From Vicinamibacterales bacterium (GTDB lineage Bacteria > Acidobacteriota > Vicinamibacteria > Vicinamibacterales > SCN-69-37): a DNA stretch of 64,000 nucleotides. The notes under the pieces were generated by a model. It made no database searches. It was given only the letters and a program-made list of their open reading frames with translations, and was not told the origin of the DNA. The stretch covers positions 750,368-814,367 of the forward strand of contig JAURFE010000001.1 in the NCBI GenBank assembly GCA_030827135.1, in the 5' to 3' direction. The number at the start of each line of letters is the position of its first letter. Position 1 is the stretch's first letter. The translations under genes were made by a program, and so were the position numbers. This document shows, one piece after another, positions 1 to 40,791 of the stretch.

Positions 1-3000
1 ATCCCGGTTCAGTCTCGCGAAGCGCTCGAGGACGGTCTACGGCAGCTTGTCGCAAACGGCGCGCAGTCGGCGCCGCGGCCGACCGGCGAGCCGGACGTGG
101 ACGCGCTGGTCGCGCGGTATCTCGCGGGAGAAGCCGTGGACTGGCGCAGTTTTCACCAGAATCGTGGCGGCCGGTACATCACGCTGCCGCCGTTCCCGTT
201 CCGGCGGACCCGTTTCTGGTACGACCCCAGACCGAAAGGCGGCGTCCATCCATTGCTTTCGCGCCGGCTGCCGGAGACGGCTGCCGGGGCAACGACGGCG
301 AGTTGGGACGTCACCGCCGACCCGGCCCAGCTGTCGTACCTCCGTCAGCATCGGCTCCTTGGTCAGCCGGTCTGGCCGGTGTCAGCCTTCGTTGAGCTCG
401 CGCTGGCGGCTGGTCGTGCGTCGGATCCATCGCGGCCGTTTCGCCTGCGCAACGTGAGGTTTCCTCGGTCCCTCGAGTCCTGCCCACCAGACCGGCAGGC
501 CGTGCAGGCGTCGCTCGAGCATCCAGGCAGCACGGTGTCCGACTTCACGCTGTGGAGCCGCGCCGGTGAATCGAGCGCCTGGACGGATCATTGCCGCGCT
601 ACGATCGACCGCTCGGAGGCCTCGCCAGAGACGGGTGCCGGATCCCGCATCGACTTCGGCCTGATGTTCTTCGCCGCCCGCGACGAAAGCACCAGCGGTG
701 AACGGTACGACCTCGTGTTGGAGGCGGCGCGATTCGCCGATCGGGAGGGCTTCACCAGTGTCTGGGTGCCCGAGCGGCACTTCACGGCCATGGGCAGCCT
801 GTATCCGAACCCGTCGGTTCTGCACGCCGCGCTCGCCCGCGAGACGCGTCACGTGCGGCTGATGGCGGGTAGCGTCGTCGTGCCGCTGCACAATCCGGTA
901 CGCATCGCCGAGGAATGGGCGGTCGTGGACAACCTGTCGGGTGGCCGCGTCGGGATGTCGTTCGCGTCGGGCTGGAACCCGCACGATTTCGTCCTGGCGC
1001 CCGGGAAGTTCGCCGAGCGCCATCGGCTGCTGTACGAAGGCATTGCGCAGCTGCGCACGCTCTGGCGCGGCGAGCCCTTCGAGCACGTGGACGACACGGG
1101 CAAGGTGTCGAAGCTCCGGACGTATCCGACGCCAATACAGCCCGAGCTGCCGGTCTGGATCACGGCCGCGCGCAGCCCGCAATCCTTCGAGCAGGCGGGT
1201 GCGCTTGGCGCGAACCTGCTCACGCACCTGCTCGACCAGGATATTGACGCACTTGCGGCGCAGGTCGCGCGCTACCGCGCCGCCCGCGAGCGCGCGGGGT
1301 TCGATCCAGCGACGGGACGCGTCACGGTGATGTGCCACACCTTCATCGGTCGCGATCGGGAGACCGTCGATCGGCTGACGCGAAAGCCGTTCTGCGACTA
1401 CCTGAAGACGAACATCGGGCTGTTTGCGGATCTGGCGCGCAGCCGTTCGCGCGACGCGGATCTCTCGACCCTACCGCCCGGCGAGATCGACGAGTTCGTG
1501 AATTTCCTGTATGACCGGTTCGCCGGCACGCGCGCCCTGATTGGCACGGTCGAATCCTGCCGTGACATGGTCGTGAGACTCGACGCGGCCGGGGTCGATG
1601 AAATCGCCTGCCTGCTCGACTTCGGTCCGCCGTCGCGCGAGGTGTTCGAGTCGCTTCCCGCGCTGCTCGACTTACGCCACGCCACGCGGCCACCGGCCCC
1701 GGCGCGGCCGGCCCATGAAGGTGTGGTGCGGCTGCGCGACGCCCGCGCCCATTGCGGCACGGCCGTTCCGGTCGATGCCCTGTACACGCGGCTCGAGCTC
1801 GCAGGCCAGCACGTCGATCCCGTGGACCGCCTGCTGACCGAGGTCTCCCGCACCGACGGCGAGTCAATGGCCCGCATCGACGCAAGCGCGCTGCCCGACC
1901 GCGAGGCGTACGCGATGCATCCGGCGATCCTGGACGCGTGCCTCCAGTCGATGGTCGCGGCGCTTCCGCAGGGCGCCGACACCGTCTATCTGCCTTTGCG
2001 CATCGACTCGGTCCGATCAGTGGCTCCCGCGCACGGTGTGCTGTGGAGCCTCGGCCGACTCACGGCCGACACAGGCGACACGATCGTTGCAGATCTTTCG
2101 GTACTGACCGACGCGGGCGACCTCGTGTTCGAGGCACGCGGGGTCACGGCTCAGAAGCGCCGGCTTCAACCAGAGACGGCCGCCCGGGAACGGCGCACCG
2201 ACACAGATTTCTTCGAAGTGACGTGGGAGCCGGCCGACTCACCCAATCTGGCCGCGACAGGCCAGACGCAGCCGTGGCTCATCCTTGGCGAAGGCCGAGG
2301 TATCGCCCGGACGCTCCGCGCGACCTTGAAGCGCCTCGGCGTGCCGGCGATTGTCGCGTCCATCGGATCCAGCGGTACCGCAACAGACGCACGGGAACTT
2401 ACGGCGGACCTCGACTCGGCATCGAGCACGAGACAATTCCTCGATACCCTCGGCGTTCCGCCGGACCGGCTGGCCAACATCGTGTACCTCGGCGCACTTG
2501 ACGCCGCCGTCGCCGATATCGATCAATCCCGTCGGCTCGCCCTGCACATTCCGTTGTTCCTGGCGCAGGCGCTTTCGACCGCGTACAGCCCCACGCCGTT
2601 GTGGTTCGTCACGGCCGGCGCAGTCCACGTGCCGCAAGTCCCGCGTGCCATGCACCCGGGACAAGCGCCGCTGTGGGGATTCGGCCGAGCCCTCGCGCGG
2701 GAATACGCCGCCCGCCGGAGCGGCCTGGTCGATCTTGATCCGATCGCCTCAACCGCGCAACAGACGGCCCAGCTGTACGACGCGGTCGCCCGCGGCGACC
2801 GCGAAGATCAATTCGCGATGCGCGACGGACAGACGTTCGTCCCGCGGCTGGCGCGGTACGCGCCGAGTGACGATGCGCCCGTCCGCCTGCACGTGCGGCC
2901 GGATGCAAGTTATCTGATTACGGGCGGCGCTGGAGGTCTGGGCACGGCCGTGGCGCAATGGCTGGCGAGCCACGGCGCCGGGGCGATCATCCTCGCCGGG

Positions 3001-3939
3001 CGCAGGCCGTCCGCAGCGCATGCGAACGAGGCGCTGGCCGTCGAGCTGGGCGCACGGGTGCGCTACATCGAGATGGATGTGGCCGACGAGACCGCGGTCG
3101 AGACGTTCCTCGCAGAGCACACGCGGACCCATCCCGACCGCCCGCTGCGCGGCGTCGTACACGCGGCTGGCGTGTGGGAGGACCGGGCCATCGCCGAGAT
3201 GGACACAGCCTCGCTCGATCGGGTGCTTCGACCCAAAGTGTCCGGCGTCGCGGTCCTCGATCGGCTCCTGGATGATCACGCGCTCGATTTCTTCGTGCTT
3301 TTCTCGAGCTTCTCCTCGATCGTGCCACCGGCAGGACAGGCCAGTTACGCCGCCGCCAACGCCTTCCTTGACGCCGTCGTGCAGGATCGCCGCGACCGCG
3401 GACGGCCGGCGTTGAGCATCAACTGGGGCCCATGGTCGGACGTCGGCTTCGCATCGACCGGCACCGGGGCAGCGGCCCACCGGGTCCTGGAGCATTCCGG
3501 GATCTCTCGGTTCACGCCTGCCGAGGGCGTCGCGCGCCTGGAGCGCCTGCTGCGGACGTCGTCGCTTCCGGCGCACGTGGGCGTGATCACGCTGGATGTC
3601 GCCAGGCTTCACGCGGCGGACCCCTGGGTCGCAAACGCCCCGATTTTCGCGAATTTCATCAACGGAGGCGTCCGGCGTGCTGCGCCGACGGCGGCTGCGG
3701 CGCCCATCACCGACGCGGCCGCATTGCGCCACCTGCTCACCCTGACCGTTTCTGAAGTCCTGCAGCTGCCCGCCCCCGGAGCAGCCACCGACGTGCCTCT
3801 CGACGAGCTCGGACTCGACTCGCTGATGGCCGTGGAGATCAAGAACCGGCTGGCCGCGGAGGCTGGCGTGGACATCCCTCTCGTCGAGCTGTTGAAAGGC
3901 ACGACGATCGCGTCGCTGGCGGAGCGGATCAGGCCATGA
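1..3939 (+). CDS. Type I polyketide synthase, 3' portion (5' end upstream of window): post-AT linker, DH split by an LLM monooxygenase domain, KR, ACP
   Basis: Frame 1 is open from nt 1; the track ORF 97..3939 merely begins at an internal GTG. Motifs in translation: HPLL...HRLLGQPVWP (DH HxxxGxxxxP), IDFGLMFFAA/GFTSVWVPERHF (bacterial luciferase/LLM family), HPAILDACLQ (DH DxxxQ), YLITGGAGGLG and SYAAANAF (KR), LGLDSLMAVE (ACP Ser). Stop overlaps the next start (ATGA at 3936-3939). Confidence 0.9.
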   Translation: MPVQSREALEDGLRQLVANGAQSAPRPTGEPDVDALVARYLAGEAVDWRSFHQNRGGRYITLPPFPFRRTRFWYDPRPKGGVHPLLSRRLPETAAGATTASWDVTADPAQLSYLRQHRLLGQPVWPVSAFVELALAAGRASDPSRPFRLRNVRFPRSLESCPPDRQAVQASLEHPGSTVSDFTLWSRAGESSAWTDHCRATIDRSEASPETGAGSRIDFGLMFFAARDESTSGERYDLVLEAARFADREGFTSVWVPERHFTAMGSLYPNPSVLHAALARETRHVRLMAGSVVVPLHNPVRIAEEWAVVDNLSGGRVGMSFASGWNPHDFVLAPGKFAERHRLLYEGIAQLRTLWRGEPFEHVDDTGKVSKLRTYPTPIQPELPVWITAARSPQSFEQAGALGANLLTHLLDQDIDALAAQVARYRAARERAGFDPATGRVTVMCHTFIGRDRETVDRLTRKPFCDYLKTNIGLFADLARSRSRDADLSTLPPGEIDEFVNFLYDRFAGTRALIGTVESCRDMVVRLDAAGVDEIACLLDFGPPSREVFESLPALLDLRHATRPPAPARPAHEGVVRLRDARAHCGTAVPVDALYTRLELAGQHVDPVDRLLTEVSRTDGESMARIDASALPDREAYAMHPAILDACLQSMVAALPQGADTVYLPLRIDSVRSVAPAHGVLWSLGRLTADTGDTIVADLSVLTDAGDLVFEARGVTAQKRRLQPETAARERRTDTDFFEVTWEPADSPNLAATGQTQPWLILGEGRGIARTLRATLKRLGVPAIVASIGSSGTATDARELTADLDSASSTRQFLDTLGVPPDRLANIVYLGALDAAVADIDQSRRLALHIPLFLAQALSTAYSPTPLWFVTAGAVHVPQVPRAMHPGQAPLWGFGRALAREYAARRSGLVDLDPIASTAQQTAQLYDAVARGDREDQFAMRDGQTFVPRLARYAPSDDAPVRLHVRPDASYLITGGAGGLGTAVAQWLASHGAGAIILAGRRPSAAHANEALAVELGARVRYIEMDVADETAVETFLAEHTRTHPDRPLRGVVHAAGVWEDRAIAEMDTASLDRVLRPKVSGVAVLDRLLDDHALDFFVLFSSFSSIVPPAGQASYAAANAFLDAVVQDRRDRGRPALSINWGPWSDVGFASTGTGAAAHRVLEHSGISRFTPAEGVARLERLLRTSSLPAHVGVITLDVARLHAADPWVANAPIFANFINGGVRRAAPTAAAAPITDAAALRHLLTLTVSEVLQLPAPGAATDVPLDELGLDSLMAVEIKNRLAAEAGVDIPLVELLKGTTIASLAERIRP
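247..612 (+). other. PKS DH domain, N-terminal hot-dog half (approx.)
   Basis: VHPLLSRRLPE...LSYLRQHRLLGQPVWPVSAFVELALAAG: canonical DH N-terminus with catalytic His motif HxxxGxxxxP (His codon near nt 349). Confidence 0.75.
649..1677 (+). other. Luciferase-like (FMN-dependent, LLM family) monooxygenase domain embedded in the PKS (approx.)
   Basis: IDFGLMFFAARDES...YDLVLEAARFADREGFTSVWVPERHFTAMGSLYPNPSVL...VVPLHNPVRIAEEWAVVDNLSGGRVGMSFASGWNP...DEIACLLDFG: hallmark LLM TIM-barrel sequence of ~345 aa lying between the two DH halves. Confidence 0.85.
1759..2166 (+). other. PKS DH domain, C-terminal hot-dog half, possibly degenerate (approx.)
   Basis: ALYTRLELAGQHVDPVDRLL (position of the GxxYGPxF motif; Tyr replaced) ... 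AMHPAILDACLQS (DxxxQ motif retained). Confidence 0.65.
2209..3636 (+). other. PKS ketoreductase domain (structural + catalytic subdomains, approx.)
   Basis: Rossmann motif YLITGGAGGLGTAVAQWL (nt ~2911), HAAGVWEDR (Asp at the LDD position, B-type-like), catalytic SSxS...YAAAN. Confidence 0.85.
3730..3930 (+). other. PKS acyl carrier protein domain (approx.)
   Basis: DVPLDELGLDSLMAVEIKNRL; phosphopantetheine Ser codon near nt 3820. Confidence 0.85.
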
Positions 3940-6900
3940 ACGGCGCCGCGGGATTGTCACTGGCTCAGCAAAGCCTGTGGTTCCTCCATCGCCTCGAACC
4001 GTCGAGCACGGCGGCGTTCAACGTACGCGCGGCGCTACGCCTGCAGGGACCGCTGCAGCCCGGCGTGCTCACGGCGGCTCTGCAGGCGGTCGTGGACCGG
4101 CACGAGGAGCTCCGCGCGTATGTGGCGTTGTCCGACGACCAACCAGCGCGGTCGATCGCATCGGCGGTCCGGTGCGACATCCCGGTCGTCGATCTGACGA
4201 GCGTGGAGCCATCGGCGCGCGACCGCGAGCGCCAGCGCGTGATCGACGCCGAAGGCCGGCACGTATTCGATCTCGGCGCCGCGCCGCTGTTCCGATGCCG
4301 GCTGTGCCGAACCGCCGCCGACGACTGGTTCCTGGTCCTGACCGCGCACCACATCATCGCTGACGCGTGGTCGCTGGCGGTGATCCTGCGTGACCTCAGC
4401 GCCGCATATCGCCGCCTCACGATCGCCCCGGAGTTACGTTTGCCGGTGCCGTCCCACAGCTATGCGGATTTCGTGGATTGGCAGCGGCGCCGGCTGGCGA
4501 GCCCTCACGCCGGTCAGGACCTCGAGTTCTGGACGAGCGCGCTGGCGGGCCTGGAACCGCTGCGCCTTCCTGCCGACCTCAGCTCCCGCGGGGCCACCTA
4601 CGAGGGAGCGTCGCGCCAGTTCGTCATCCCGCCCGAGACCACCGAGTCGCTGCGCGAGATTAGCCGCCAATCGAAGGCGACCCTGTTCCACACGCTGCTG
4701 GCGGCCTACTCCATCTTCCTGTCCAGGCTCACCGGCCAAACAGACTTTACGGTCGGCACATCCGTCGCCGGACGAGACGATGAGTCGTTTGAACCGCTGG
4801 TGGGCTTCTTCGCGGATCTACTCGTGGTCCGGCAGGACCTCTCGGGGAGGCCGACGTTCGTCGATGTAATCGATCGGGTGCGTCGCCGCAGCCTCGACGC
4901 GCTGGACCATCAGCATGCGCCTTTCGATGCGATCCTCCGCGAGATCAGCCCCGGCAGAACGGGGGACGCGGCCCTGCTGTTCCATGCGATGTTCCTGTTC
5001 ACCAAGAATCCGGCGGCTCAGTTCGATGTGCCGGGCCTCACGGTCTCTGCCCCTCTGCTGCCGAGCGTCACAGCCAAATACCCGTTGAGCCTGCACATCG
5101 AGGACGACGGCGAGAGTCTCCGCGGGCTGATCGAATGTCGCACCGCGCTCTTCTCATCCAGACGCATCGATCAGCTGCATCGTCACTGGCTCCACCTGAT
5201 CACGGGACTCGCGCGCCAGCCAAGTGCCTCGGTGGCTGCGGTTGCGATGCTGGATCGCGCGGAAGAACACCGTGTGACCTTGGGCCGCAATGCTCCGGGC
5301 ACCCCGTCGTCGGCCACGACTCTCCACGAGCGGTTTTCCAGACAGGCGGAAACGCAGGCGGCGCGCACCGCCGTGAGCGACGCACACGGCGACGTGACCT
5401 ATGGCGAGCTCGAGGCCCGGGCGAATCAGATCGCCTGGCGGTTGCGCGAGATGGGGGTGCGTCCCGAGACACGAGTGGGCCTGTGTCTCGGACGCTCCGC
5501 GGACGCGATCGTAGCCCTGCTGGCCGTGGTGAAGGCGGGCGGCGCCTATGTACCGTTGGACCCTGCCTACCCCACGACGCGGCTCGGATATCTCATCGCG
5601 GACGCCAACATCGAGATCGTGGTTACGCGGCGAGAGGACGCCTCGGCCGTTCCGGCGTCGGCGAATCTCCGCATCCTCGACCTCGATGCGGTCGGCGCCC
5701 TCCTGCCGGACGCGCCACCGCTTGGCGCCCCACCGGTGTCCTGCCAGCCGGACAACGCGGCCTACGTGATCTACACATCAGGCTCCACCGGTCAACCCAA
5801 AGGTGTCGTGGTCACGCACGGCAACGCGACCCGGCTGTTTCAGGCGACCACCGAGTGGTTCCGTTTTGGTCCCGACGACGTGTGGGTCCTGTTCCATTCA
5901 CTCTCGTTCGATTTTTCAGTCTGGGAAGTCTGGGGAGCGCTGCTCCACGGCGGCCGTCTCGTCGTGGCCCCGTATCTGACGACACGATCTCCGGAGGCGT
6001 TTCGGCGACTGCTCGTCGATGAGCGCGTGACGGTGCTGAACCAGACGCCGTCGGCGTTCCGGCAGCTCATTGACGCCGACCGTTCGGCCTCGGGGCCGGC
6101 CGACTTCTCACTGCGCTGGATCGTCTTTGGTGGCGAGGCGCTCGATCCGGCAATGCTTCGGCCGTGGGTCGAGCGGTACGGAGAAGCCCGTCCTCAGCTC
6201 GCGAACATGTACGGAATCACCGAGACCACGGTCCACGTCACGTTCCGTCCGCTGTCGTCGGCCGACGTCTTCGGCGAACCGCGGAGCGCGATCGGCGAGC
6301 GGATTCCGGATCTCGAGCTTTACGTGCTCGATCGGGCGCAGCGGCCGGTTCCCGAAGGCGTCACGGGTGAGTTGTTCGTGGGCGGCGCCGGCGTCGCCCG
6401 CGGGTACCTCGGAAGGGCCGCGCTGACGGCCGAGCGCTTCGTGCCGAATCCGTATGGCCGGCGCGGGTCACGGCTCTATCGCACGGGCGATTTGGCGCGT
6501 TGGCTCGACAACGGCGACCTCGAATACCTCGGACGCGCGGATGGACAGATCAAGATTCGCGGCTTCCGCGTGGAGCCCTTCGAGATCGAAGAGGTCGTGC
6601 GACGGCATGACGCCGTCCGTGATGCGGTGATCGACCTGCGAGGCCGCGGCGACGGCGCGCGCCTGGTGGCGTACGTCATCCCGGCACCCGGCCGTACGCC
6701 GGCGCCAGCCGACCTGCACACGTGGTGCGTCGCGCGCCTGCCGGCTCACATGGTGCCGGCCGTCTTCGTGTCGGTCGCCTCGTGGCCGATGACGGTGAAC
6801 GGCAAGCTCGATCGCACGGCCCTCCCGGCGCCAGATGATGGGGCCCTGGTGCACCGTGGAGAAGAAGAACCGAAGACGGAGGCAGAGCGCGCCATCGCCA

Positions 6901-7080
6901 AGGTGTGGGCCGGGGTGCTCGGCCTCGCGCGTGTCAACCGCGATGACAACTTTTTCGAGCTGGGCGGCGACTCGATCCTCTGCCTGCGCGTGCTGTCCGG
7001 CCTGCGACGGCACGGCCTGATGTGCAGCCTGGCTGATCTGTACCGCTGCGGCAGCGTCCGCGAGCTCGCGGCGATTGCCA
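3936..7080 (+). other. NRPS module 1: C(acyl-accepting)-A(Thr)-T
   Basis: A-domain code read by eye as DFWNIGMVHK (FDFSVWE / VLNQTPS / IVFGGEA / NMYGITETTVH), the canonical Thr code. T domain has GGDSI (E-type PCP signature). C His motif is HHIIADAWS (Gly to Ala). Confidence 0.75.
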
Positions 7081-10000
7081 CGCCCGGCGGCGACCATGTG
7101 CCGGCCGTCGCGCCCTTCGCCCTCATCAACAGTGACGACCGGGGTCAGCTGCCAGCCGGGGTTGTCGACGCCTATCCACTGACGCGGCTACAGAGAGGGA
7201 TGCTGTTTCACCGCGAGCTGGCGCCGGGCACGGCCGTCTACCACGACGTCTTCAGCGTCCAGCTCCGGCTCCCGTGGAATCCCGCCGCCTTCACGACGGT
7301 GGTGCAGCAACTGGCGGAGGCGCACGCTGCGCTGCGGACGAGTGTCGACTCGGGCACGTTCAGCCAGCCACTGCAACTCGTCCACCACACCGCACGGGTG
7401 AGCTGCACATTCGCGGACCTGTCCGCGCACGACACCGATGCCCAAGACGCGGAGGTGGCTCGCGTCGTCGCCGACGAACAGGCGACGGAGTTCAACCTGT
7501 CGGCGCCGCCATTGTGCCGGTTCCACATGGTCCGCCGCTCGGGTGGTGCCGTCCAGATCGTCTTCGGGTTCCACCACGTGATTCTCGACGGATGGAGCGT
7601 GGCCTCGTTGATGACCTCGCTGATCGAGGCCTACCGCGCCCTCTGCCAGGGCCAGGCGCTCGAACATCCGGACACGCCCGGGCCAGGCATCGCCGTCGCC
7701 CGCGAACAGGAAGCCCTGGGAGCGGAAGACAGCCGCCGCTTCTGGCAATCCGAGCCGCTGCCGGCCATGGAGCTGCCCAGACATCCGCCGGCGTCGTCTG
7801 AGCCGGACGCGCGGCGCTCAGTCGCGCGCCTCACAGTGCCGTTGAGTGCGGCGCTTTCGGCCGGGCTCCATGAGATCGCCGCGCGCGCGCACACGCACGT
7901 GAAGAGCGTGCTGCTCGCGGCGCACCTCCTGGTGCTCTCCAGGCTCGCCGGCCAGTCCGACGCCGTGACGGGCCTGGTGATGAACACGAGGCCAGAGACC
8001 GACGACGGGGAGCGCATCCTTGGCCTGTTCCTGAATACGGTGCCGTTTCATGTCGACGTGTCGACGCCGACGTTTGTCGAGCTCGTCCGGCGCGTGGCCG
8101 CACGTGAGCAGACATTGCTGGTGCATCGGCATTTCCCGATGCACGAGATCCGCCAGATTCGGGGCGGTCGCGCGTTGTTTGACGCGGCCTTCAACTTCAT
8201 CCACTTCCACGTCTACCGTCAGCTGCTGCGCCCCGGGGGCCTGGAGGTAATCGGCCACGAGTTTCTCGAGGAAACCGACTTCCCGTTCCTGGCGCAGTTT
8301 GCGGTCTATCCCGACGGGACGTCCATCGAACTCCAGCTCACCTACGCCGCCCGGGAGTTTTCGGCGGCCTATGTCCGTCGAATCGCCAGCTCCTACGAGC
8401 GCGTACTCGAAGCGGCGGTCGCCCGGCCGCAGGCCGCGCCCTCCACCTACGCGCTGATCTCCTCTTCGGAGGCGGCGGACGTTTTGAGTTGGCGTGGCCA
8501 GGGACAGACCTATCCCGAGGCGCCGAGTCTTCCGGCCTGGTTCAGCACAGTCGCGGCCAGACACGGGGACGCCGTCGCGATCACGAGTGCCGATGGCACG
8601 CTCACATATGCGGCGCTCGATCGCCAGTCCACGCAAATGGCGCACGCGCTTCGCCGCCTCGGCGTGGGGCCCGAGACGCGCGTCGGGCTGGCCATGGAGC
8701 GCACGCCGTCGCTGCTCGTCGGCCTGCTCGCGATTCTCAAGGCCGGTGGTGCGTATGTGCCGCTCGACCCGGCGTACCCGCCGGCTCGGCGCAGGTTCAT
8801 GCTCGACGACAGCCGCGTGCGGCTTGTCCTCACCGACGGGCGCGTCCCCGTCCCGGCGGAGATACCCGCCTTCGACGTCAGCGACGTCGCCGCGTGGCAG
8901 CACGAGTTGACGACGCCAATCGAGCCGGCCCCGCAACCGGATCACCCGGCGTATGTGATCTACACGTCCGGGTCGACCGGCCAGCCGAAGGGCGTGGTCG
9001 TCACCCATCGGAATGTCACGCGGTTGTTTCAGGCGGCCGCGGCACACTTCACGTTCGGTCCAAGCGATGTGTGGACGCTGTTTCACTCAATCGCTTTCGA
9101 CTTTTCGGTCTGGGAACTATGGGGCGCGTGGCTCTACGGCGGGAGGCTCGTGCTCGTCGACTACGAGACCAGCCGCACGCCCGAGCGCTTCTATGGGCTA
9201 CTGGCCGACGAAGGCGTCACGGTCCTCAACCAGACTCCGTCGGCCTTCCGGCAGCTCCTTGGCGTCGACGACACACAGCGTCGCCCGCTGGCGCTGCGGT
9301 ACATTATCTTCGGCGGCGAAGCGCTCGACCTGGCACTCCTGGCGCCCTGGGTCGCGCGGCATGGTGACGCTGCGCCGGCACTCGTCAACATGTACGGCAT
9401 CACCGAGACGACCGTCCATGTCACCCATCGCCGGATCCGGCGTGCGGACGTTCTTGGCGGCGCAGGCAGCCTGATCGGCCAGCCGCTCGGCGATCTGCAG
9501 CTCTACGTGCTCGACCGGCACCAGCAGCTGGTAGCGTCGGGGCTCCCGGGCGAGTTGTATGTCGGGGGCGAGGGCCTGGCGCGCGGATATCTCGCGCAGC
9601 CCGCCATGACCGCGAGCCGCTTCGGCCCTAATCCGTTTGGGGCCGGCCGGCTGTATCGCACGGGCGACGCGGCGCGGTGGCTGGACGGGGGCGAGCTCGA
9701 GTATCTCGGCCGACTGGACGATCAAGTGAAGATCCGTGGCTTCCGCATCGAGCTCGGTGAAATCGCGTCGGTGCTTCGCGAGCACGGGGGCCTCCGCGAG
9801 GCAGCGGTCATCGCCCGCCGGCAGCCGAGCGGCGAACCGCAGCTGATCGCCTACGGCATCGCCGCGGGGTCGCCGGCGCCGACCGCGGCCACCCTCCGCA
9901 TCGCCGCCCAGCAGTGGCTCCCGGCGCACATGGTGCCGGCCGCGTTCGTCCTCCTCGATGCCCTGCCGCTCACCCGTCATGGCAAGCTCGACCGCGATGC

Positions 10001-10391
10001 TCTCCCGGCGCCGGAGTCCGATGCCGGCACGGTCGACTTCGTGCCGCCGCGCTCTGACGTCGAGCGACAGTTGTGCGCGATCTGGCAGGAGCTCTTCACC
10101 GGCACGCGGATTGGCATCACCCACAACTTCTTCGATCTCGGTGGCCACTCGCTGCTCGCGACACAGTTGATCGCGCGCGTTCGACACCGGCTCGGGGTCG
10201 ACCTTCCCTTTCGCGTGATCTTCGACGCACCCACGATCCAGGCAATGGCCGCGCGGGTCTCCGCGTCGAGCGCCGCGCCGGCGCCGCAGCCGGCGCGGTC
10301 GACGCCGCGCGCGCCTCGCCAGCGGCGGCAGGTCGCTGTGACGAGTGACGGCACGCTCCTCCCCGACGATTCGGAACCCACGGGCAGGTAG
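3936..10391 (+). CDS. Non-ribosomal peptide synthetase, two modules (C-A-T-C*-A-T)
   Basis: 2151-aa ORF with C motifs ([16 protein letters not shown]; later [10 protein letters not shown]), two A domains ([24 protein letters not shown], GKLDR) and two T domains (GGDSI, GGHSL). ATGA overlap with the PKS gene. Confidence 0.95.
   Translation: [2151 protein letters not shown]
7110..10260 (+). other. NRPS module 2: C*(atypical, [27 protein letters not shown])-A(Thr)-T
   Basis: C domain with HHVILDGWS but a distinctive N-terminus. A code DFWNIGMVHK (Thr). T domain GGHSL. Confidence 0.75.
8517..10013 (+). repeat. A-domain-sized duplication, copy 1 (module 2 A domain); copy 2 at 11755-13248
   Basis: Protein copies are roughly 85-90% identical by eye over ~500 aa (e.g. 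[60 protein letters not shown].D). Confidence 0.85.
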
Positions 10392-10398
10392 CCGATCT

Positions 10399-29041
<18,643 letters not shown>

Positions 29042-29055
<14 letters not shown>

Positions 29056-29800
29056 CGCGCGCGCGATCGTCACCGGGGCCGCGAGCGGCCTTGGCCGGCG
29101 CTTTGCGCTCGAACTCGCGCGGGCGGGGGCCCGCGTCGCGGCGGTGGATGTCGACGCGGACGGCCTTCAGCGCCTCGTGGCCGAGGCGTCCGGCGGCCGG
29201 AGTGGTGTCGATACCTTCGTCTGCGATGTCTCTCGTGAGGAGGCCGTGCGGACCACGGTCCAGCAGGCGATCGCGGCACTGGGCACGGCGAACGTGCTGG
29301 TGAACAATGCCGGGATTCTGCGCGACGGCCTGCTGGTCTCGCAGGAAGATGGGTTCGTCCGCAAACTCCCCACCGCGCAGTGGCGGAGCGTGCTCGAGAC
29401 GAACCTCACGGGCGCGTATCTGATGGCTCGTGAAGTCGCGGCGCAGATGGTCGAGCGGCAAGTGCGACCGGCGCTCGTCGTGAACATCTCGTCGCTGACC
29501 GGCGGCGGCAACGCCGGCCAGTCCAACTATTCAGCGTCGAAAGCCGCACTCGACGCGCTGACACGGACGTGGGCCATGGAACTGGCTCCGCACGGCATCC
29601 GCGTCGGCGGCATCGCGCCCGGCCTGGTCGACACGCCGATGCTGGCGTCGCTCGGCGACGCCGAGCGCGAAGCGCTGACGGCCAAAGTCCCGCTGGGCCG
29701 TGCTGGCCAGCCATACGAGATCTGGCTGGCGCTGCGGTTACTCATCGAATGCGAGTTCTTCACCGGACGCGTCATCGCGGTTGATGGCGGTGCCGCATGA
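29042..29800 (+). CDS. Short-chain dehydrogenase/reductase, FabG-like (3-oxoacyl-ACP reductase family)
   Basis: IVTGAASGLGRRFA (TGxxxGxG), NNAG, ISS...YSASK catalytic triad. Overlaps the upstream NRPS by 14 nt and the downstream NRPS by ATGA (29797-29800). Confidence 0.9.
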
Positions 29801-32800
29801 CCGGACCGGAATTCAATCTCGACGACCTCGAGCTCCTCGACCGGCTCCTGGACGACGCGGGCGCGTCGCGACCGGTCCTCGCTGGCGGGGCTGAGCGGCG
29901 GCGCGAGGCGCCGGCCTCCCTCCAGCAACGGCGCCTGTGGTTTCTGCACGAGCTGACGCCGGACTCGGCCGCCTACAATGTCGCGACGGCGCTCCGTCTC
30001 GAGGGCCCGTTCGACGAGTCGGCGTTCCGCCGCGCGCTCGAGTTCGTGGTCATGCGCCACGACGTGCTCCGCACGACGTTTCACGGCCGCGATGGCGCGC
30101 CGTGGCAGGTCGTCTCGACGTCGCCGCTCCTGGACTTTCAGTCGGAGACCCTGGAGGTGCGATCCGCGGAAGCACTGGCTGCCGAGGTCCAGCGGCAATT
30201 CGCCATTGAGAGCCACCGCCCGTTCAATCTCGGCACCGGCCCCCTGTTCCGCGTTCGCCTCTTGAAGTCCGGCCCCCAACAGCACGTCGCCATCCTCGCG
30301 CTACATCACCTGATCGCGGACGCCTGGTCGTTCGGCGTGCTCGTGCGTGAAGTCGCCTCCGCCTACCGCGCGTTCCTGGTGTCGGAGCCGGTCGACTGGT
30401 CCGAGCTGCCGCTGCAGTACACGGACTACGCCGCCTGGCAGCACGCGACGCTCGACGACGTGCGGATCGGCGCGCACGTGGACTACTGGGCCGATCGGCT
30501 ACGGGGCCTCTCCCGGCTCGATCTGCCCACCGACTTTCCCCGTCCGGCGCTGCAAACCTTCAACGGCGACCTGCTGACCTTCGAGCTCTCTCCCGCCGTC
30601 ACGGCCGGGCTTCGGGCGCTGTGCGGCGACGGCACCACGCTGTTCATGGTGTTGTCGGCGGCGCTGCAGACCTTCATCGGCCGGTACTGCCGCGAGTCGG
30701 ACGTCGCGATCGGCACGTCGATCGCCAGCCGCGAGGTCCCAGGGACTGAGGGTCTCATCGGTTTCTTCGTGAACATGATGGTGCTCCGGGCCGATCTCTC
30801 GGGCGACCCGACGTTCACCGAGCTGCTGGCACGGGTGCGACGGGACGTGCTCGACGGGTTCGACCACGCGCAGGTGCCGTACGAGATGCTCGTCGAGCGA
30901 CTACAGCCCGAGCGTGACCGCAGCCGGAATCCGTTCTTCCAGATCGCGTTCACTCTGTTCAGCACGCCCGTCCCGCCGACCGATTTCATCGGGCTCCACA
31001 TCGAGCCCATCGCCAGCCAGACCGCGGCGAGATTCGACCTCGAGCTGTTCATGGAAGAGGCCGCTGGCGGCGGCATGCGCGCGGTGTTCTCCTACAACAC
31101 GGACCTGTTCAGGCGCCAGACGATCGCGGGGCTCGCCGGCACCTTCGGCCGGCTGGTGGAATCCATCGCGGCCGATCCCGGACGCCGCATCCTGGATCTG
31201 CCCTGGCTCACTGACGAGGAAGCGCGGCGCGCGGCGGCGCGCGTCGATCGCACATGGCCGGCGACCGGGGGCATCCACGAGATCATCGCGGCCCAGGCGG
31301 CGCGCGAGGCGTCCCGGACGGCCGTCCGGTGCAACGGAACATCCCTGACCTACGGCGAATTGGACCGTCGCGCGCGGGCGATCGCGCGCCGGCTGGTGTC
31401 GCTCGGCGCGGGTCCTGATGTGCTCGTGGGCCTGTGGTTCGATCGCTCCGTCGATTTGGTAACGGCGATCGTCGGCGTCCTCAACGCGGGTGCCGCCTAC
31501 GTCCCGATCGACCCGGCCTATCCGCCGGAGCGAGTGGCGTTCATGCTGCAGGACAGCCGGCCGCTGGCGATCGTCTGCACGCGCGAGCTCGCGGCCCGTC
31601 TGCCGGCGTTCAGCGGCCATGTGATCTGCCTCGAAGACGTCGCGGATGACGAGCCCGTCGAGGACTGGACCGCCCCGCGCGTCGCACCGGACAATCTGGC
31701 CTACATCATTTACACCTCGGGCTCGACCGGGCAGCCCAAAGGCGTGCAGGTCACGCATCGCAACGTCGTGCGTCTGATGCAGGCGACCGATACGTGGTTT
31801 TCGTTCGGGCCTGACGATGTCTGGACGCTGTTCCACTCCTACGCCTTCGACTTCTCGGTCTGGGAGATCTTCGGCGCGCTCATGTACGGCGGCACGCTCG
31901 TCGTCGTGCCGACCGCTGTGGCCCGTTCGGCCGAAGATTTCTACCAGCTCGTCTGCGACGAGGGCGTCACCGTGCTCAACCAGACGCCGTCCGCGTTTCG
32001 CGAATTCGTCGCCGCCGAACAGCGGCTGGCGCGGGAGCGCGATCTCAGCCTGCGCTTCGTGATCTTCGGCGGCGAGGCGCTCGACTTCAGCGGCCTCGAG
32101 TCGTGGTTCGACCGGCATGGCGACCGCGATCCGGTCCTCGTCAACATGTATGGGATCACCGAGACCACGGTGCACGTGACGTACCGGCCTGTTGCGTGGC
32201 GCGACGCGCGCGGCGCCGGCGGCAGCCTCATCGGTCGCCCCATTCCCGATCTCGACTTGCACCTGCTCGACGACCGGCTACGACCGGTCCCCAGCGGCGC
32301 CGTCGGCGAAATCTTTGTCGGCGGCGCCGGAGTGGCGCGCGGGTACGCCAGCCGGCCGGCGCTGACCGCCCAACGCTTCGTGCCCAACCCGTTCACGGCA
32401 ACCGTCGGCGAGCGCCTGTATCGCAGCGGCGACCTGGCGCGCCAGCGGTCGGACGGCGAGCTGCAGTACCTGGGTCGCGCTGATCACCAGGTCAAGGTCC
32501 GCGGCTTCCGCGTCGAGCTCGGCGAAATTGCGGCGGTGCTCGAAGGCCACCCCGAGGTGTCGCAGGCCGTCGTGGCGGTACGCGAGGACGTCGCCGGCGA
32601 TCGCCGGCTCGTGGCGTACGTGGTGCCGACAGCCACCACGGCCGGCGCTCCGCCGGAGGCCGCCGAGTTGACCCGGGACTGGCGGCTCACGTTCGACGAG
32701 ATGTATCGCCAGGGCGCCGGGACCGACGCGGACTTCAATACGTCGGGCTGGAACAGCAGTTACACGGGCCAGCCGCTATCGGCCGACGCGATGCGGGAGT

Positions 32801-35800
32801 GGGTCGACGAAACCGTCGGCCGCGTAGCAGCTCTCGGCGGCCGGCGCACGCTTGAGATTGGGTGCGGCACCGGCCTCCTGCTGTTCCGGCTGGCCGCGAC
32901 CTGCGAGCGGTATGTGGCGACCGATCTGTCACCGGAGGCCCTGCGGCTTGTGTCGGCAGGCGTTCTCGCCCGAGGCTGGTCGCACGTCGAGGTGCGCCAT
33001 CAGGAAGCGCGGGACTTTCGGGGGATCCCGAAGGGCGAGTTCGACACGATCGTCCTGAACTCGGTGGCGCAATACCTCCCCGGCATGGGGTACCTGCGCG
33101 AAGTCATCGATGGCGCGCTCGACGCGCTGGCGCCTGGCGGATGCCTCGTGATCGGCGATGTCCGAAACCGCCGGCTGCAGCAGGCTTTCCACGCGTCGGT
33201 GCAGCGGTTCCGTGCCGGCAGCACGATCCCGCGCGACACGCTCCGCGAGCGCGTGCGTTCGGGGCTCGCGCACGACGAGGAGCTGACGATCGATCCCGAG
33301 GCGTTTCCTGCGCTGGCCCAGGAGGACCCGCGCGTTCGGCACGTGGATGTGCACCTGAAGCACGGACGCGCGCTGACGGAGATGAACCTGTTCCGCTACG
33401 ACGTCGTGGTGCACACCGGCGTCCGGCACTCGGTCGAGCCATCGTGGATGGAATGGGCCAGCGCGATGACGGTGGATTCCATCGGCTCGCTCCTGCGCGA
33501 GTCCGCCGGACGCGGGCTGGCCGTGGCGGGCATCCGGAACGCGCGCCTGCACGACGCGAACGCCACCGTGACGTGGCTGAGCGGCGACGAGCCGACGGAC
33601 GCGCCCGCGGGGCTCGACCCAGCCGACCTGGTGACGCTGGCGCGAGACCTTGGCTTCAGCGCACGCCTGTCCTGGGCTCCCGACAGTTCGGACGGCCGAT
33701 TCGACGCGTGCTTTGTTCCGCAATCTGACGCCGGAGAGCCGCCGCCCCACGTCGCGCCACGGCCACGGCCGACGAAGGCGCACCTCGGTCCCTGGTCCAG
33801 TTTCGGAGGCCGGTCGGCTGACGGCGCGTCCCTCTCGCGCCAGCTGCGGGAATTCGCCGCGACGAAACTCCCAGACTACATGCGGCCACACGCCTTCGTC
33901 CTGCTCGACCGGCTGCCCCTCTCCGCGCACGGCAAGCTGGATCGACAGTTGCTGCCGGCGCCGCAGGCCGAACGAACCCGCAACGTCGAGGCGATCGCGC
34001 CTCGCACGCCTGCCGAACAAGCGCTCGAGGAGATCTGGCGCGACGTCCTCGGCCTCGGCGTGGTCGGCGTGGATGATGATTTCTTCGCGGTCGGTGGTCA
34101 CTCACTGCTCGCGACGCGCGTGGTCTCGCGCATCCGCGATCGGTTCCTCGTGGAGTTGCCCCTCCGCGCCCTGTTCGAATACCCGACCATCGCGGGTCTC
34201 GCACGTGAACTCGATCGGTTGACCCCGTCGATTGCCGCCGAGGCTGGCGGTATCCCGCGTGCGTCGAGTCGCGATGCGTTGCCGGTGTCGTTTGCGCAGC
34301 AGCGTCTCTGGTTCCTGCAGCTGCTGGATCCTGACCTCCCGGCGTACAACATCGCCGCGGCGGTGTCGCTGCGGGGCCCGCTCGACGCCGGCGCACTGGC
34401 GCAGGCGCTCGAGGCGATCGCCGGGCGTCACGAAGTCCTGCGCACGACTTTTGCCTGGCGGGACGGACAGCCGGTGCAGGTGATCCACGAGACGCCGCGG
34501 TTTCCACTGCAGGTTGACGACCTCAGCGGTGTACCGGCCGACCTTCAGGAGGCAGAGGTTCAGCGGCGCATCGGCGACGCGGCGACCCGATTGTTCTCGC
34601 TCGAACACGGCCCGCTCGTCCGCGGCCTGCTGCTGCGCCTGGCCGCCGATCGCCACGTACTCGCCCTGACGATGCACCACATCGTCGGCGACGGCTGGAC
34701 CATCGGCGTCCTCGCCCGCGAGCTTGGCGCGTTGTACACGAGCGCCCTGCGGCGGACGCCGTCACCGCTGTCCGATCTGCCCATCCAGTACGCGGACTTC
34801 GCGGTGTGGCAGCGCGGGTACGTCCAGGGCGACGTGCTCCAGCGGCAACTGCAGTACTGGAAGACGCAGCTTTCGGGCGTCCCGACCGGTCGCGTCCTTG
34901 CTCCCGATTTTCCATCGGGCCATGAGCGACAGGGCCGAGGCGCGTGCGAGCGGGTCGCGCTCCCGCCGGAACTCGCCCGTCGACTGACTGCGTGTGGTCA
35001 GGCACACGGCGCCACGCTCTTCATGACGCTCGTCTCGGCGTTTGGCGCCTTGCTTCATCGCTACAGCGGCGACACGGACTTCGCGATCGGCACGCCGATT
35101 GCCAACCGGACGCGACGCGAGACCGAGACGCTGCTCGGCTGCTTCGTGAATACCCTCGCCCTGCGTCTGAATCTGTCGGGCGATCCGACGTTCGTCGAGC
35201 TACTCGAGCGCGTCCGGTCGACCGCCATGGACGCGTACGCCCATCAGGACGTCCCGTTCGAGGCGGTCGTCGACGCCGTGCAACCGGACCGCGACCGCCA
35301 GAGCCATCCGCTCTTCCAGGTGATGTTCGTCTTGCAGAACGCGCCGTCGGAGCCGCTGCGGTTTCCCGACCTCGAGATTGCTCCCTTCGAGATCGAGACC
35401 GTAGCCGCCAAGTTCGACCTCTCGCTGCTTGTGGAGCCCTCCGGCGACGGCGGCCTGACGGCCGTTTTCGAGTACGACCGCGACGTGTTCCTGGCGGACA
35501 CGGTACGGCAGCTGGCCCGCCACTTCCACGGATGGCTGTCGCAGCTCTGCAGCCAACCCGACCGGCGGATGTCGGCGCTGGACGTTCTGTCGCCGGCCGA
35601 CCGCGCGGACCTGCTGACCCTGGGGCGCGGCGAAGACATGGGCGAGGACGTTCCGCTCGTGCTCGACCGGATTGCCAGTTGGGAGCGCTCGGATCCGACC
35701 CGGACCGCGGTGACGGGCACGAACGGCCCCCTCTCCTACGGCGAGCTTGGATCGCAGGCGCTGGCTGTCGCGCGCGTCCTGCGGGCGCGCGGAATACAGA

Positions 35801-38235: not shown

Positions 38236-39443
38236 TGGGCCGTGGCGTGTTTCTCAATGTGTCGGGAGGCGGCCACGTCATCGCGACCTATGGGATGGTT
38301 GGCGAACTGGTGGCGCGCGGGGAGACCATCACCTACTACGAAGCGCCGAAGTTTCAGCGGGACATCGAGGCGCTGGGCGCCGAGTTCCGGCCGTATGGGC
38401 CGATCCGCCCTTACCCGGGTCCGCTCGCGCAGTATCCGTATCATCACGAACTCGACCTGCCGCCGGTCATGACGTGGATTGCACTGGAATGGCTGCCGAG
38501 GTTGCTGCCGGAGATTCGCGCGCTTAAGCCTGACTACATCGTCCACGACTCCCTCTGCCTGTGGGGACGCGTGGTCGCCGAGAAGCTCGGCGTGCCGGCG
38601 GTCTGCTCGGTCCACACACCGGCGGTCACGTGGCCACTCCTGTTGCGTGTCGGCCGGTATTGGCGGGACATGCCCCGCATGGCCGCCCGATCGCACAGAA
38701 GCCTGCGATTCTTTCGAACGCTCGCCCGTCAACTGGGCGAGGAGTACGGCGTCGAGAAGACTGGGTTCATCGACCTGCTCTCGAACGTCCAGCCGCAGAC
38801 GATCTGCCATGCCCCCCGAGAGCTGCAGCCGTACGGCGAGACCTTCGGTGCGACGTATCACTTCGTTGGCTCGGTGCACGATCGACCGGTCAAGACGGCG
38901 TTCCCGTTCGATCGCATTCGCGAGCCGTTCATCTACGTCGGCTTCGGGACGATTTGCGATCCCGGACCGGCGTTCTTCCGGAACTGTCTGTCGGCATTCG
39001 CCGGGCTCGACTACCAGGTCGTCATGATCCTCAGCGACAGCACGGTGCCAGAGGACCTGGGCGCCGTGCCGTCGAATGCGATCATCTGGAGCCTGAAGCG
39101 GGACGGTCTGGCGCCTCAGCTCGACCTGCTGCCCCGCGCGTCGTTATTCGTGATGAACGGAGGCAATGGCGGCGCACGGGAAAGCGCCTGGTTCGGAGTG
39201 CCGATGATCGCGGTACCGACGACCTTCGAAACCGACACGATTTCGATGCGGATCGACGCTCAGGGAGCCGGGACCCGCATCCCCCCGCAGCGGGCGACGC
39301 CGGAGCGGCTCAGGCGCGCCGCGCTCGAGATCCTCGCGAACCCCTCGTACGCGCGAAACAGCCGGCGCATCGGCGACGCGTGCCGCGCCTCCGGCGGCAG
39401 TATGCGTGCCGCGGACGTCGTGCTTCAGGCCGTCCGCGGATGA
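38235..39443 (+). CDS. GT1-family glycosyltransferase (macrolide/MGT-like UDP-glycosyltransferase)
   Basis: N-terminus FLNVSGGGHVIATYGMVGELVARGETITYY (GT-B acceptor domain); C-terminal donor motif NGGNGGARESAWFGVPMIAVPTTFETD. Start shares one nt with the NRPS stop (TGATG). Confidence 0.85.
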   Translation: MGRGVFLNVSGGGHVIATYGMVGELVARGETITYYEAPKFQRDIEALGAEFRPYGPIRPYPGPLAQYPYHHELDLPPVMTWIALEWLPRLLPEIRALKPDYIVHDSLCLWGRVVAEKLGVPAVCSVHTPAVTWPLLLRVGRYWRDMPRMAARSHRSLRFFRTLARQLGEEYGVEKTGFIDLLSNVQPQTICHAPRELQPYGETFGATYHFVGSVHDRPVKTAFPFDRIREPFIYVGFGTICDPGPAFFRNCLSAFAGLDYQVVMILSDSTVPEDLGAVPSNAIIWSLKRDGLAPQLDLLPRASLFVMNGGNGGARESAWFGVPMIAVPTTFETDTISMRIDAQGAGTRIPPQRATPERLRRAALEILANPSYARNSRRIGDACRASGGSMRAADVVLQAVRG

Positions 39444-40762
39444 ACGCGCAGGACGAGGCCGCCCGATTCGAGGATGTCGTCGATTGTGAACGCCGCCGGC
39501 GTCGGCCGGACGGGCTCGATGCGCACGCACTGCGCGACCGTCGCGAGCATCAACTGCAGTTGCAGCATCGCGAGCGGCTGCCCGATGCAGTTTCTGGCGC
39601 CCCACCCGAACGGAAAGTAAGCGAAGGTCGGGAGCTCCCGTTCGAATCCTGGCGTCCATCGTTCCGGTTTGAAGGCCTCCGGGTCCGGAAACCACTCGGG
39701 TTTGTGCTGCATCACCCACTGCGAGATGATCACGCGCGCGCCGCCGGGCACATGCCACTCGCCAATCCGATCGTCATCGACCGCCACGCGCACCATGGCG
39801 CCGGCCGGAGGACACAACCGCAAGGTCTCTTTGACGATCTGTGCGGTGAACGGCAGGCGATCGAGGTCGGCGAAGCCGGGCGGCCGCCCCTGCAGTGCGC
39901 CCTCCAGCTCGGCGGCCAGTTGCGCCTCGACCTGCGGATGTTGGGCCACGAGCCGCAGCACCTGGATGAACGCCGCCGCGGTCGTGAAGAAGCTGGCGGC
40001 GAGAGTGCTCGTGAGCTCATGACAGATCTGGCGATCGGTCAGCACCTGGCCGTCGCTCTGCCTGGTCTCGAGCATCGACGACAGCAGGTCGTGCCTGGGG
40101 CCACCCTCCGCGCGGCGCTTCGCGATATACGGCAGGATCTCGGCGTCGTACGCCGCCATCGCACGGGCGTAGGCGCGGTTGCCCCGCGTCGGGAATGGAG
40201 GTGGCAGTTGAAGGAAGCCGTCGAGGCGCCGGAGGGCGTCGGTAAAGGGGTCGCGAATGCGGCGGGAGTCCTCGCGCGGGCCTATGCCGAAGTGCATCTG
40301 GATGCCGATATCGAGAATCAGATCCATGACGGCGTCGCTGACGCGGACTTCGCCCGCGGTCCAGCCGTCGAGCATCGCGCGCGTCGCCGAGACGGCGACA
40401 TCCGCGAACGGCCGCACGCGGTCGCGCTGCAGCATGGTCGCGAGCATCTGGCGCCGCGGTTTGGCGGCGGCCCCCGGCGTCGTCTGGAGCGATTGCCCGA
40501 AGAATCTCTGGGCGCGGCGTCCACCCGACGACTTCACGTAGTTGTCCGCGTTGGTGACCATGACGTGCCGGACAGGCTCCGCCCCGGTCACCACGTACAG
40601 CTTGAAACCGAGACAATGGAAGGAACTGACCTCGCCGTAGGTGCGCGCGAGATCCTCGAACGCGAGCACGCGGCGCCGCTTGAAATTCAGGAGGGCGCGC
40701 ACGATATCCGCGCCCCTCGGCCCGGGCGGTCGCCGGCCAGTGGCGCCGGACGTCACGGACAC
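39425..40762 (-). CDS. Cytochrome P450 monooxygenase
   Basis: Heme-binding loop FPFGWGARNCIGQPLA (FxxGxRxCxG), ExxR (ETLRL). GTG start at 40762, or at 40756, which has better spacing from GGGAGG. The 3' end overlaps the convergent GT gene by 19 nt. Confidence 0.9.
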   Translation of the reverse strand: MSVTSGATGRRPPGPRGADIVRALLNFKRRRVLAFEDLARTYGEVSSFHCLGFKLYVVTGAEPVRHVMVTNADNYVKSSGGRRAQRFFGQSLQTTPGAAAKPRRQMLATMLQRDRVRPFADVAVSATRAMLDGWTAGEVRVSDAVMDLILDIGIQMHFGIGPREDSRRIRDPFTDALRRLDGFLQLPPPFPTRGNRAYARAMAAYDAEILPYIAKRRAEGGPRHDLLSSMLETRQSDGQVLTDRQICHELTSTLAASFFTTAAAFIQVLRLVAQHPQVEAQLAAELEGALQGRPPGFADLDRLPFTAQIVKETLRLCPPAGAMVRVAVDDDRIGEWHVPGGARVIISQWVMQHKPEWFPDPEAFKPERWTPGFERELPTFAYFPFGWGARNCIGQPLAMLQLQLMLATVAQCVRIEPVRPTPAAFTIDDILESGGLVLRVHPRTA

Positions 40763-40791
40763 CGCCTCCCACCTGCGTCGCGCACCCGCTG

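Follow-up and report, generated by a model that had tools for sequence, protein, structure and literature searches.

Organization of the PKS gene

The stretch of DNA analysed here (the window, 64,000 nucleotides of contig JAURFE010000001.1 from a Vicinamibacterales bacterium) begins inside a polyketide synthase (PKS) gene in which a luciferase-like monooxygenase (LLM) lies between the two hot-dog halves of a dehydratase (DH) domain. The open reading frame (ORF) occupies frame 1 of the + strand and runs without interruption from nucleotide 1 to a stop at 3939, so that 1312 amino acids are visible, while its 5' end lies beyond the left edge of the window. Pfam and NCBIfam profiles place along it, in this order, the DH N-terminal half (DH_N), the LLM, the DH C-terminal half (DH_C), a ketoreductase (KR) and an acyl carrier protein (ACP):

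1..246, + strand: linker and tail of the upstream PKS part, ending ...LPPFPFRRTRFWYDP before the DH (continuous frame-1 translation)
247..561 (aa 83-187), + strand: DH N-terminal hot-dog half (PF21089 PKS_DH_N, profile 1-103/103, E 1.2e-13)
562..654 (aa 188-218), + strand: linker 1, between the end of the DH_N profile match and the LLM, partly extending the last DH_N strand
655..1674 (aa 219-558), + strand: complete LLM TIM-barrel of the MupA/Atu3671 natural-product subfamily (TIGR04020, profile 1-340/341)
1675..1731 (aa 559-577), + strand: linker 2, Pro/Ala-rich, leading from the LLM to the DH, of variable length in the family alignment
1732..2157 (aa 578-719), + strand: DH C-terminal hot-dog half (PF14765 PS-DH, profile 6-158/166, E 2.5e-24)
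2158..3441, + strand: KR region, with a structural subdomain (aa about 720-968) and the catalytic KR (aa 969-1147; PF08659, profile 1-180/180, E 4.7e-59)
3745..3939 (aa 1249-1310), + strand: ACP and stop codon (PF00550 PP-binding, E 6.9e-13)

Both DH halves score well above their Pfam cutoffs (51 bits against 27 for PKS_DH_N, 86 bits against 23.7 for PS-DH), and the Bac_luciferase family of Pfam matches aa 220-534. The profiles with which an earlier note on this DNA had proposed to fix the domain borders (Bac_luciferase, PS-DH and KR) thus all found their match, and the motifs that it had read by eye are where it had seen them. The DH_N half holds HPLL (aa 83) and the catalytic-His motif LRQHRLLGQPVWP (His117; HRLLGQPVWP at aa 117-126), the LLM shows IDFGLMFFAA (aa 216-225) and GFTSVWVPERHF (aa 250-261), and GQHVDPVD (aa 602-609), HPAILDACLQ (aa 640-649) and HAAGVWEDR (aa 1054-1062) follow in DH_C and KR. 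The same note had put the insertion at ~345 aa; an insertion between the halves it is, but the two DH profile matches lie ~390 aa apart, a distance made up of the 340-aa LLM and linkers of ~31 and ~19 aa.

Upstream of the DH, an LPxYxFxRxxxW linker is found in the homologues as well, and the ketosynthase/acyltransferase (KS/AT) part of the module lies to the left of the window. At the other end of the ORF the ACP keeps the serine of its phosphopantetheine site (LGLDSL), and the ATG of the next gene, at 3936, overlaps the PKS stop. We considered whether the fusion could be a frameshift artefact; we reject this, since the frame stays open and homologous along its whole length and since other, independent proteins show the fusion.

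One dehydratase interrupted by a monooxygenase

The two flanks were examined as a single domain by deleting the insert: aa 79-212 were joined to aa 563-735 and this chimera was searched against the sequences in the Protein Data Bank (PDB). Its residues 5-287 form a single alignment to solved PKS DH domains, with 7TZL aligned over 37-309 of 315 residues (E 2e-13); CurJ, CurK, CurF, GphF, PpsC and PksJ are the other solved DHs matched. Because the insert-deleted chimera aligns end to end with solved DHs, the flanks are, as far as sequence can tell, the two parts of a single double hot-dog, a match far beyond what chance would give.

Two AlphaFold2 models were calculated. With an alignment of LLM-first homologues, the LLM and DH_C were confidently predicted, but DH_N, for which there was almost no alignment depth, reached a predicted local distance difference test score (pLDDT) of about 50. 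With an alignment that included fused homologues, mean pLDDT was 89.2 and the predicted TM-score (pTM) 0.71, with DH_N at 81-96 and both the LLM and DH_C above 90. The sole internal segment below 50 in this second model is residues 139-145 (aa 208-214), which belongs to linker 1; linker 2 stands at 71-73 around model residues 490-510. These confidence values are consistent with the two DH halves packing together in the model; the top Foldseek matches listed are all LLMs, none of which bears on DH-half packing. In a (beta/alpha)8 barrel the first strand neighbours the last helix, a geometry that makes insertion into a loop easy. Pfam, TIGR04020, the chimera alignment and AlphaFold2 with Foldseek therefore uphold the earlier note in its central observation, a complete TIM-barrel LLM between two hot-dog halves.

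Compared with canonical PKS DHs (EryDH, CurF/J/K), the window has both halves and the HPLL, HxxxGxxxxP and HPALLDxxxQ motifs. It differs in the insertion, since the halves of a canonical DH are contiguous across a short linker whereas here about 390 aa separate them, and in a degenerate GYxYGPxF motif. Dehydration by the window DH is probably not expressed in the product. A DH-embedded LLM can also be regarded as a natural design for placing a tailoring domain inside a PKS module.

The LLM as a predicted assembly-line alpha-hydroxylase

In NCBIfam the insert matches TIGR04020 at 463.8 bits, against a cutoff of 244.45, while F420-dependent families match at 50-120 bits, every one of them under its cutoff. 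The nearest solved structure in a PDB sequence search is that of the Ox domain of PuwE, from puwainaphycin biosynthesis (PDB 6KET, E 4e-111), and Foldseek superposes the model on 6KET with a TM-score of 0.92-0.94 at 46% identity, compared with about 0.8 for the bacterial luciferases LuxA/B. All 47 invariant columns of a 41-sequence alignment, including P188-E189-R190-H191 (query numbering), are occupied by the family residue in the window. We predict from this that the domain is an alpha-hydroxylase dependent on reduced flavin mononucleotide (FMNH2).

Two relatives give this prediction its chemical content. MupA of mupirocin biosynthesis was shown in vitro to alpha-hydroxylate an ACP-bound beta-keto thioester, in a reaction dependent on FMN, NADH and a reductase supplied from outside (PMC10952193). 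The PuwE Ox domain was assigned to C2-hydroxylation of the 3-amino-2-hydroxy acyl unit of the lipopeptide fatty chain (PMC4219810). The latter resembles the window LLM in being integrated into the assembly line and in acting, by that assignment, on C2 of a lipopeptide fatty chain; it differs in that no DH is described there (PMC4219810). MupA, OocM and CalD share subfamily TIGR04020 with the window LLM but are trans-acting, free-standing enzymes of trans-AT PKSs whose partner is a KS0-ACP bimodule; they are not fused into a cis-AT-type module and lie within no DH.

LLMs as a superfamily are diverse in function, and one may ask whether the domain carries out some other reaction: a Baeyer-Villiger-type or chain-shortening oxidation as proposed for CalD/MndB, an F420-dependent reduction, or none at all, as an inactive relic. 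Chain-shortening LLMs are cited in PMC8739492, and the weaker F420-family matches (50-120 bits) also speak for such a reading. Against this, the TIGR04020 score of 464 bits is far above the F420 families, which all stay below their cutoffs, every family-invariant residue is kept and the closest solved structure is an assembly-line Ox domain, so that we hold such a reading to be very improbable.

A widespread module type

A word-indexed search returned more than 1000 homologues, of which the best are mostly proteins of ~1100 aa that start with the LLM and continue with PS-DH, KR and ACP. These LLM-first homologues occur in Burkholderia, Acidobacteria, Streptomyces, myxobacteria and cyanobacteria. 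No protein match exceeds 62% identity to the window, and matches over the full architecture stay at or below 53%. A scan of genome contigs gave nothing close either, the best match reaching 54%, or 49% where the whole query was spanned. Searched exhaustively with HMMER, 1.84 billion cluster representatives yielded 1954 proteins at E <=1e-30; of the 150 best matches, 17 are fused like the window (query ~2-43 to ~631-659), and in 4 of those proteins Pfam confirms the fused architecture. Two show how complete such modules can be: P0123 (2240 aa) reads KS-AT-DH_N-LLM-DH_C-KR-ACP, and P0130 (2930 aa) reads FAAL-ACP-KS-AT-DH_N-LLM-DH_C-KR-ACP.

Retrieved homologues, a mixed set and a non-random sample, were classified with home-made hidden Markov models (HMMs) as follows:

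LLM-first with DH_C (split): 150/257
Internal LLM without DH flanks: 73/257
Fused (including the window and a few cluster duplicates): 24/257
LLM-first without DH_C: 7/257
DH_C only, LLM internal: 2/257
DH_N only: 1/257

An LLM is thus paired with a DH C-half in 174/257 classified homologues, and such modules are accordingly numerous. P0071 and P0087 contain AT-LLM-KR-ACP modules without any DH halves; since AT-LLM-KR modules exist, the hydroxylation chemistry does not need a DH. In the cyanobacterial proteins P0077, P0081, P0092, P0102, P0103 and P0107, a C-methyltransferase and an ACP come after LLM-DH_C where the KR would otherwise stand. By its domain context the embedded-LLM cassette is also combined with other tailoring domains.

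In a neighbour-joining (NJ) tree of the LLM domains, which is rough and carries no support values, fused forms are scattered over several clades, among split ones. The window LLM groups there with P0123, P0124 and P0125, the second of which comes from an Acidimicrobiia metagenome-assembled genome (MAG).

The suggestion that a DH-embedded LLM had not been described thus does not hold as a claim of novelty, for public data contain many examples of the arrangement and its split form is part of the genetically characterised occidiofungin cluster. We found no paper on the LLM-in-DH topology in the literature searched, an absence that is no proof. The window adds a new fused member to a module type that is already widespread and that has barely been discussed in a known pathway.

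The split counterpart in occidiofungin biosynthesis

Homologues of 1107 aa in Burkholderia are OcfI of the occidiofungin (burkholdine) cluster, where the 3324-bp gene is described as a 'flavin-dependent monooxygenase' (PMC9494966). In B. ambifaria (L001), OcfJ consists of FAAL-ACP-KS-linker-PKS_DH_N, with DH_N at aa 1344-1448 of 1474, and OcfI of LLM (aa 1-318), PS-DH, KR and ACP; the next gene begins with KS-AT-KR. About 170 aa lie between the KS linker and DH_N of OcfJ (L001 5580-10004), with no Acyl_transf_1 match in Pfam, and the OcfJ module appears to lack an AT of its own.

The lipid of occidiofungin, NAA2, is 3-amino-5,6,7-trihydroxystearic acid with xylose on the C7-OH (PMC9792986), and disruption of an ocfI homologue abolished the toxin (PMC3442841). 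Reading this lipid retro-biosynthetically, we infer that the C7-OH and C6-OH of NAA2 would be set by the first module, through ketoreduction and alpha-hydroxylation without dehydration, that the C5-OH would stem from the next KR, and that the C3-NH2 would be introduced by transamination.

The likeness to the window is close. In both, a KS, a linker and DH_N are followed by LLM-DH_C-KR-ACP (over the latter four domains OcfI is 48-49% identical), and both stand at the lipid-initiating end of a glycolipopeptide nonribosomal peptide synthetase (NRPS) line accompanied by a glycosyltransferase. They differ in that OcfJ/OcfI are two proteins, split at the DH_N/LLM junction, whereas the window has one ORF; in the DH_C motif, which reads HPAFLDACSR (D...R) in OcfI against D...Q in the window; and in the fate of the chain, which is extended further and transaminated in occidiofungin but passes directly to an NRPS condensation (C) domain in the window.

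Active sites of the DH and KR

The window DH keeps the catalytic His117 (HxxxGxxxxP) as well as Asp645 and Gln649 (HPAILDACLQ). Its GYxYGPxF motif has degenerated to GQHVDPVD, with loss of the Tyr, the Gly and the Phe. The earlier note had taken the lost Tyr as a sign that the DH may be a catalytically dead scaffold. This argument carries little weight, because both catalytic residues, His117 and Asp645, are intact and conserved in the family, and because the CurJ DH, which we take to be an active dehydratase, also lacks the Tyr (IHLGQSF in the chimera alignment).

The wider family was surveyed in 74 LLM-linked DH_C halves, which were chosen for an HP...D/G/N motif, so that all counts taken from them are somewhat biased. 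The YGP Tyr is retained in only about 12 of the 74; the residue four positions past the Asp is Arg in 50, Gln in 12, as in the window, and Leu in 11. The window departs from the family consensus at three conserved DH_C sites (W616S, F609D and F594L). Catalytic residues are lost in single members: the DH_C Asp is replaced by Gly in P0058, and in a fused DH_N-LLM-DH_C protein of an Acidobacteriota MAG (L010 5401-7360) the DH_N His is replaced by Tyr (YRVDDTAILP). The frame of L010 degenerates within DH_C, likely an assembly frameshift.

That an adjacent KR of B-type-like character follows the DH, as the earlier note had it, agrees with our reading of the motifs. GGAGGLG, K1079 and Y1116-AAAN are intact, and HAAGVWEDR occupies the LDD position with the diagnostic Asp at the third position; KRs of EryAI and AmphB are among the PDB matches. 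The KR looks active and B-type-like.

Proposed chemistry

We consider it reasonably probable that the LLM alpha-hydroxylates the chain, that the KR reduces it and that no dehydration follows, which would give a 2,3-dihydroxyacyl starter for the nine-module NRPS encoded downstream. The PKS module would serve in lipoinitiation, its KS extending the chain to a 3-oxoacyl-ACP. With O2 and FMNH2, the latter supplied by a reductase encoded elsewhere, the LLM would hydroxylate C2 of this ACP-bound 3-oxoacyl thioester as MupA does, and the B-type-like KR would reduce C3 to yield 2,3-dihydroxyacyl-ACP. The DH would not dehydrate; it would mainly be a structural frame that holds the LLM in the 'DH slot' between AT and KR, near the ACP, and in the commoner split versions it would be where the two polypeptides meet. 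The first NRPS C domain would then N-acylate residue 1 with the dihydroxyacyl chain, and glycosyltransferases may decorate a lipid hydroxyl, as in occidiofungin and hassallidins. The 2,3-dihydroxyacyl-ACP output had already been put forward in the earlier note, and it is the best-supported chemistry, given the activity of MupA in vitro, the assignment of the PuwE Ox domain and the vicinal C6/C7 diol in the product of OcfJ/OcfI.

Several points weigh against a diol made without dehydration. No flavin reductase was found among the window ORFs scanned, which is likewise the case in the MupA cluster (PMC10952193). The assignment of the C6-OH of occidiofungin to OcfI is itself a retro-biosynthetic inference. 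Most of all, 12/12 aligned DH_N halves of the family retain the catalytic His, more than a mere scaffold needs, and in the motif-selected DH_C set the HPxxLD motif has H in 74/74, P in 74/74 and D in 72/74. An active site so conserved may do something. The conserved dyad is the main uncertainty, and it keeps alive two readings in which the DH is active.

According to the first, the DH acts on-pathway: KR and DH would produce a 2-enoyl intermediate, the LLM peroxyflavin would epoxidise or hydroxylate it, and opening or hydration would lead to the 2,3-diol, the embedding serving to juxtapose consecutive active sites. LLMs such as those of mensacarcin biosynthesis reportedly act as epoxidases, as cited in PMC8739492, and the family-wide conservation of His and Asp, even where the halves are on different proteins, together with the nearly invariant HPxxLD, speaks for this reading. 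MupA-type enzymes, however, use beta-keto substrates (PMC10952193), DH-less AT-LLM-KR modules occur in the same LLM clade, the His is lost in L010 (Tyr) and the Asp in P0058 (Gly), and the YGP motif is degenerate in the window and in most of the family. We regard dehydration on the pathway as unlikely.

According to the second, the DH would dehydrate the 2,3-dihydroxyacyl chain to a 2-hydroxy-2-enoyl, the enol of a 2-oxoacyl, or the LLM would over-oxidise it, and the chain that primes the NRPS would be an alpha-keto or alpha-hydroxy-enoyl one instead of a diol. The canonical D...Q pair of the window DH, where most split homologues have D...R, speaks for this, as does myxoglucamide biosynthesis, in which an FMN-dependent Ox domain gives both alpha-hydroxy and alpha-keto amides (PMC13638107). 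It is nevertheless the diol that survives in occidiofungin, the sole homologous system with a known product (PMC9792986); the window DH_C is off consensus at the three sites listed above, and the two glycosyltransferases of the window fit free lipid hydroxyls. A chain oxidised or dehydrated in this manner therefore seems to us very unlikely.

If the diol-forming scheme is right, it matters for genome mining, since reading DH_N-LLM-DH_C-KR as an alpha-hydroxylating, diol-forming module instead of a dehydrating one changes the predicted structure, and software reading the module as 'DH+KR' would wrongly arrive at an enoyl chain. The window itself would then point to a 9-residue glycolipopeptide, capped by a 2,3-dihydroxy fatty acyl group, of a high-GC and probably Gram-negative organism.

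The DH as a possible assembly interface

Twelve loci (L001-L009, L011, L056 and L057) are split exactly at the DH_N/LLM junction; their hosts are Burkholderia, four cyanobacteria, a Xenococcaceae MAG, Dictyobacter and five Streptomyces. A tblastn search at E 1e-5 missed DH_N in L006, L007 and L010, and an HMM built from 12 DH_N halves recovered it. In the 12 split loci the upstream ORF stops about 5-35 codons past DH_N, within the segment that corresponds to linker 1, and this stop lies anywhere from an 8-nt overlap to about 130 nt before the first LLM match. The downstream proteins begin at LLM residues 1-3 and thus have no N-terminal docking domain. In these systems the hot-dog halves, and with them the catalytic His and Asp, reside on different polypeptides; the window has no such break, its ORF being continuous.

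As the halves are on separate proteins without docking domains, the DH itself may provide the assembly interface, and the simplest reading of these gene structures suggests that reconstitution of the double hot-dog holds the split subunits together. A gene break between hot-dog halves without docking domains would be an apparently undiscussed mode of subunit docking; no paper on split-DH docking was found in the literature searched, which does not prove that there is none. Going further, we tentatively propose, as a possibility about which we are more doubtful than confident, that the DH has been repurposed as an assembly device. It would clamp the LLM, non-covalent hot-dog reconstitution would dock KS(-AT)-DH_N to LLM-DH_C-KR-ACP, the His/Asp pocket may bind the acyl chain or turn it into its enol for the flavin site next to it, and the fusion in the window would be the covalent version.

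One split locus, on plasmid1 of Scytonema sp. HK-05 (L004 240-19081), encodes four successive proteins, FAAL-ACP-KS-AT-KR-ACP / KS-AT-DH_N / LLM-DH_C-KR-ACP / KS-AT-KR-ACP. This four-protein PKS predicts a polyol chain with an extra alpha-hydroxyl, which would be analogous to the triol of occidiofungin. The locus was also considered as a hassallidin cluster; it is not demonstrably so, its domain order being that of a polyol-type PKS.

Surroundings of the PKS gene

Downstream of the PKS gene the window contains the following genes:

3936-10391, 10345-29055 and 29797-38235, + strand: three NRPS genes, 2+5+2 = 9 modules (Pfam and core-motif counts)
29042-29800, + strand: stand-alone FabG-like short-chain dehydrogenase/reductase (SDR), 252 aa, between NRPS genes 2 and 3
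38235-39443 and 40792-42138, + strand: glycosyltransferases (Pfam)
39443-40792, + strand: ORF between the two glycosyltransferases, no Pfam match at E <=1e-5
42104-43747, - strand: ABC transporter (Pfam)

Epimerization (E) domains follow NRPS modules 4 and 6, a methyltransferase is embedded in module 8, and the line ends with a thioesterase (TE). The SDR gene overlaps the end of the second NRPS gene and abuts the third, and it is probably co-translated with them.

Hassallidins, whose dihydroxy fatty acid the earlier note had taken to fit the proposed product, consist of nine residues and carry sugars on an N-Me-Thr and on the 3-OH of the lipid (PMC10300848). At the level of layout only, the window is hassallidin-like: it has nine NRPS modules, N-methylation in module 8, the penultimate one, a TE and two glycosyltransferases. 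It is unlike the hassallidin-type cyanobacterial clusters in the 68% GC of its DNA, in encoding a DUF481 protein and in having only two E domains. DUF481 members we take to be outer-membrane proteins, mainly of Gram-negative bacteria. Together with the GC content, this protein speaks against a cyanobacterial source and hints at a Gram-negative host. We treat the resemblance as a lead only.

Three ORFs near the right edge of the window, at 58106-59947 (+), 59969-60898 (+) and 60895-63927 (-, 1010 aa), likewise find no match in Pfam at E <=1e-5. Beyond the NRPS genes the GC content drops from about 0.69 to about 0.63-0.66 (window about 40000-64000), and the genes of this part encode the DUF481 protein, a Band 7 protein, a sugar epimerase, a DXD glycosyltransferase, a ParA-like ATPase and a histidine kinase. 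This fall in GC and the gene content likely mark the boundary of the cluster.

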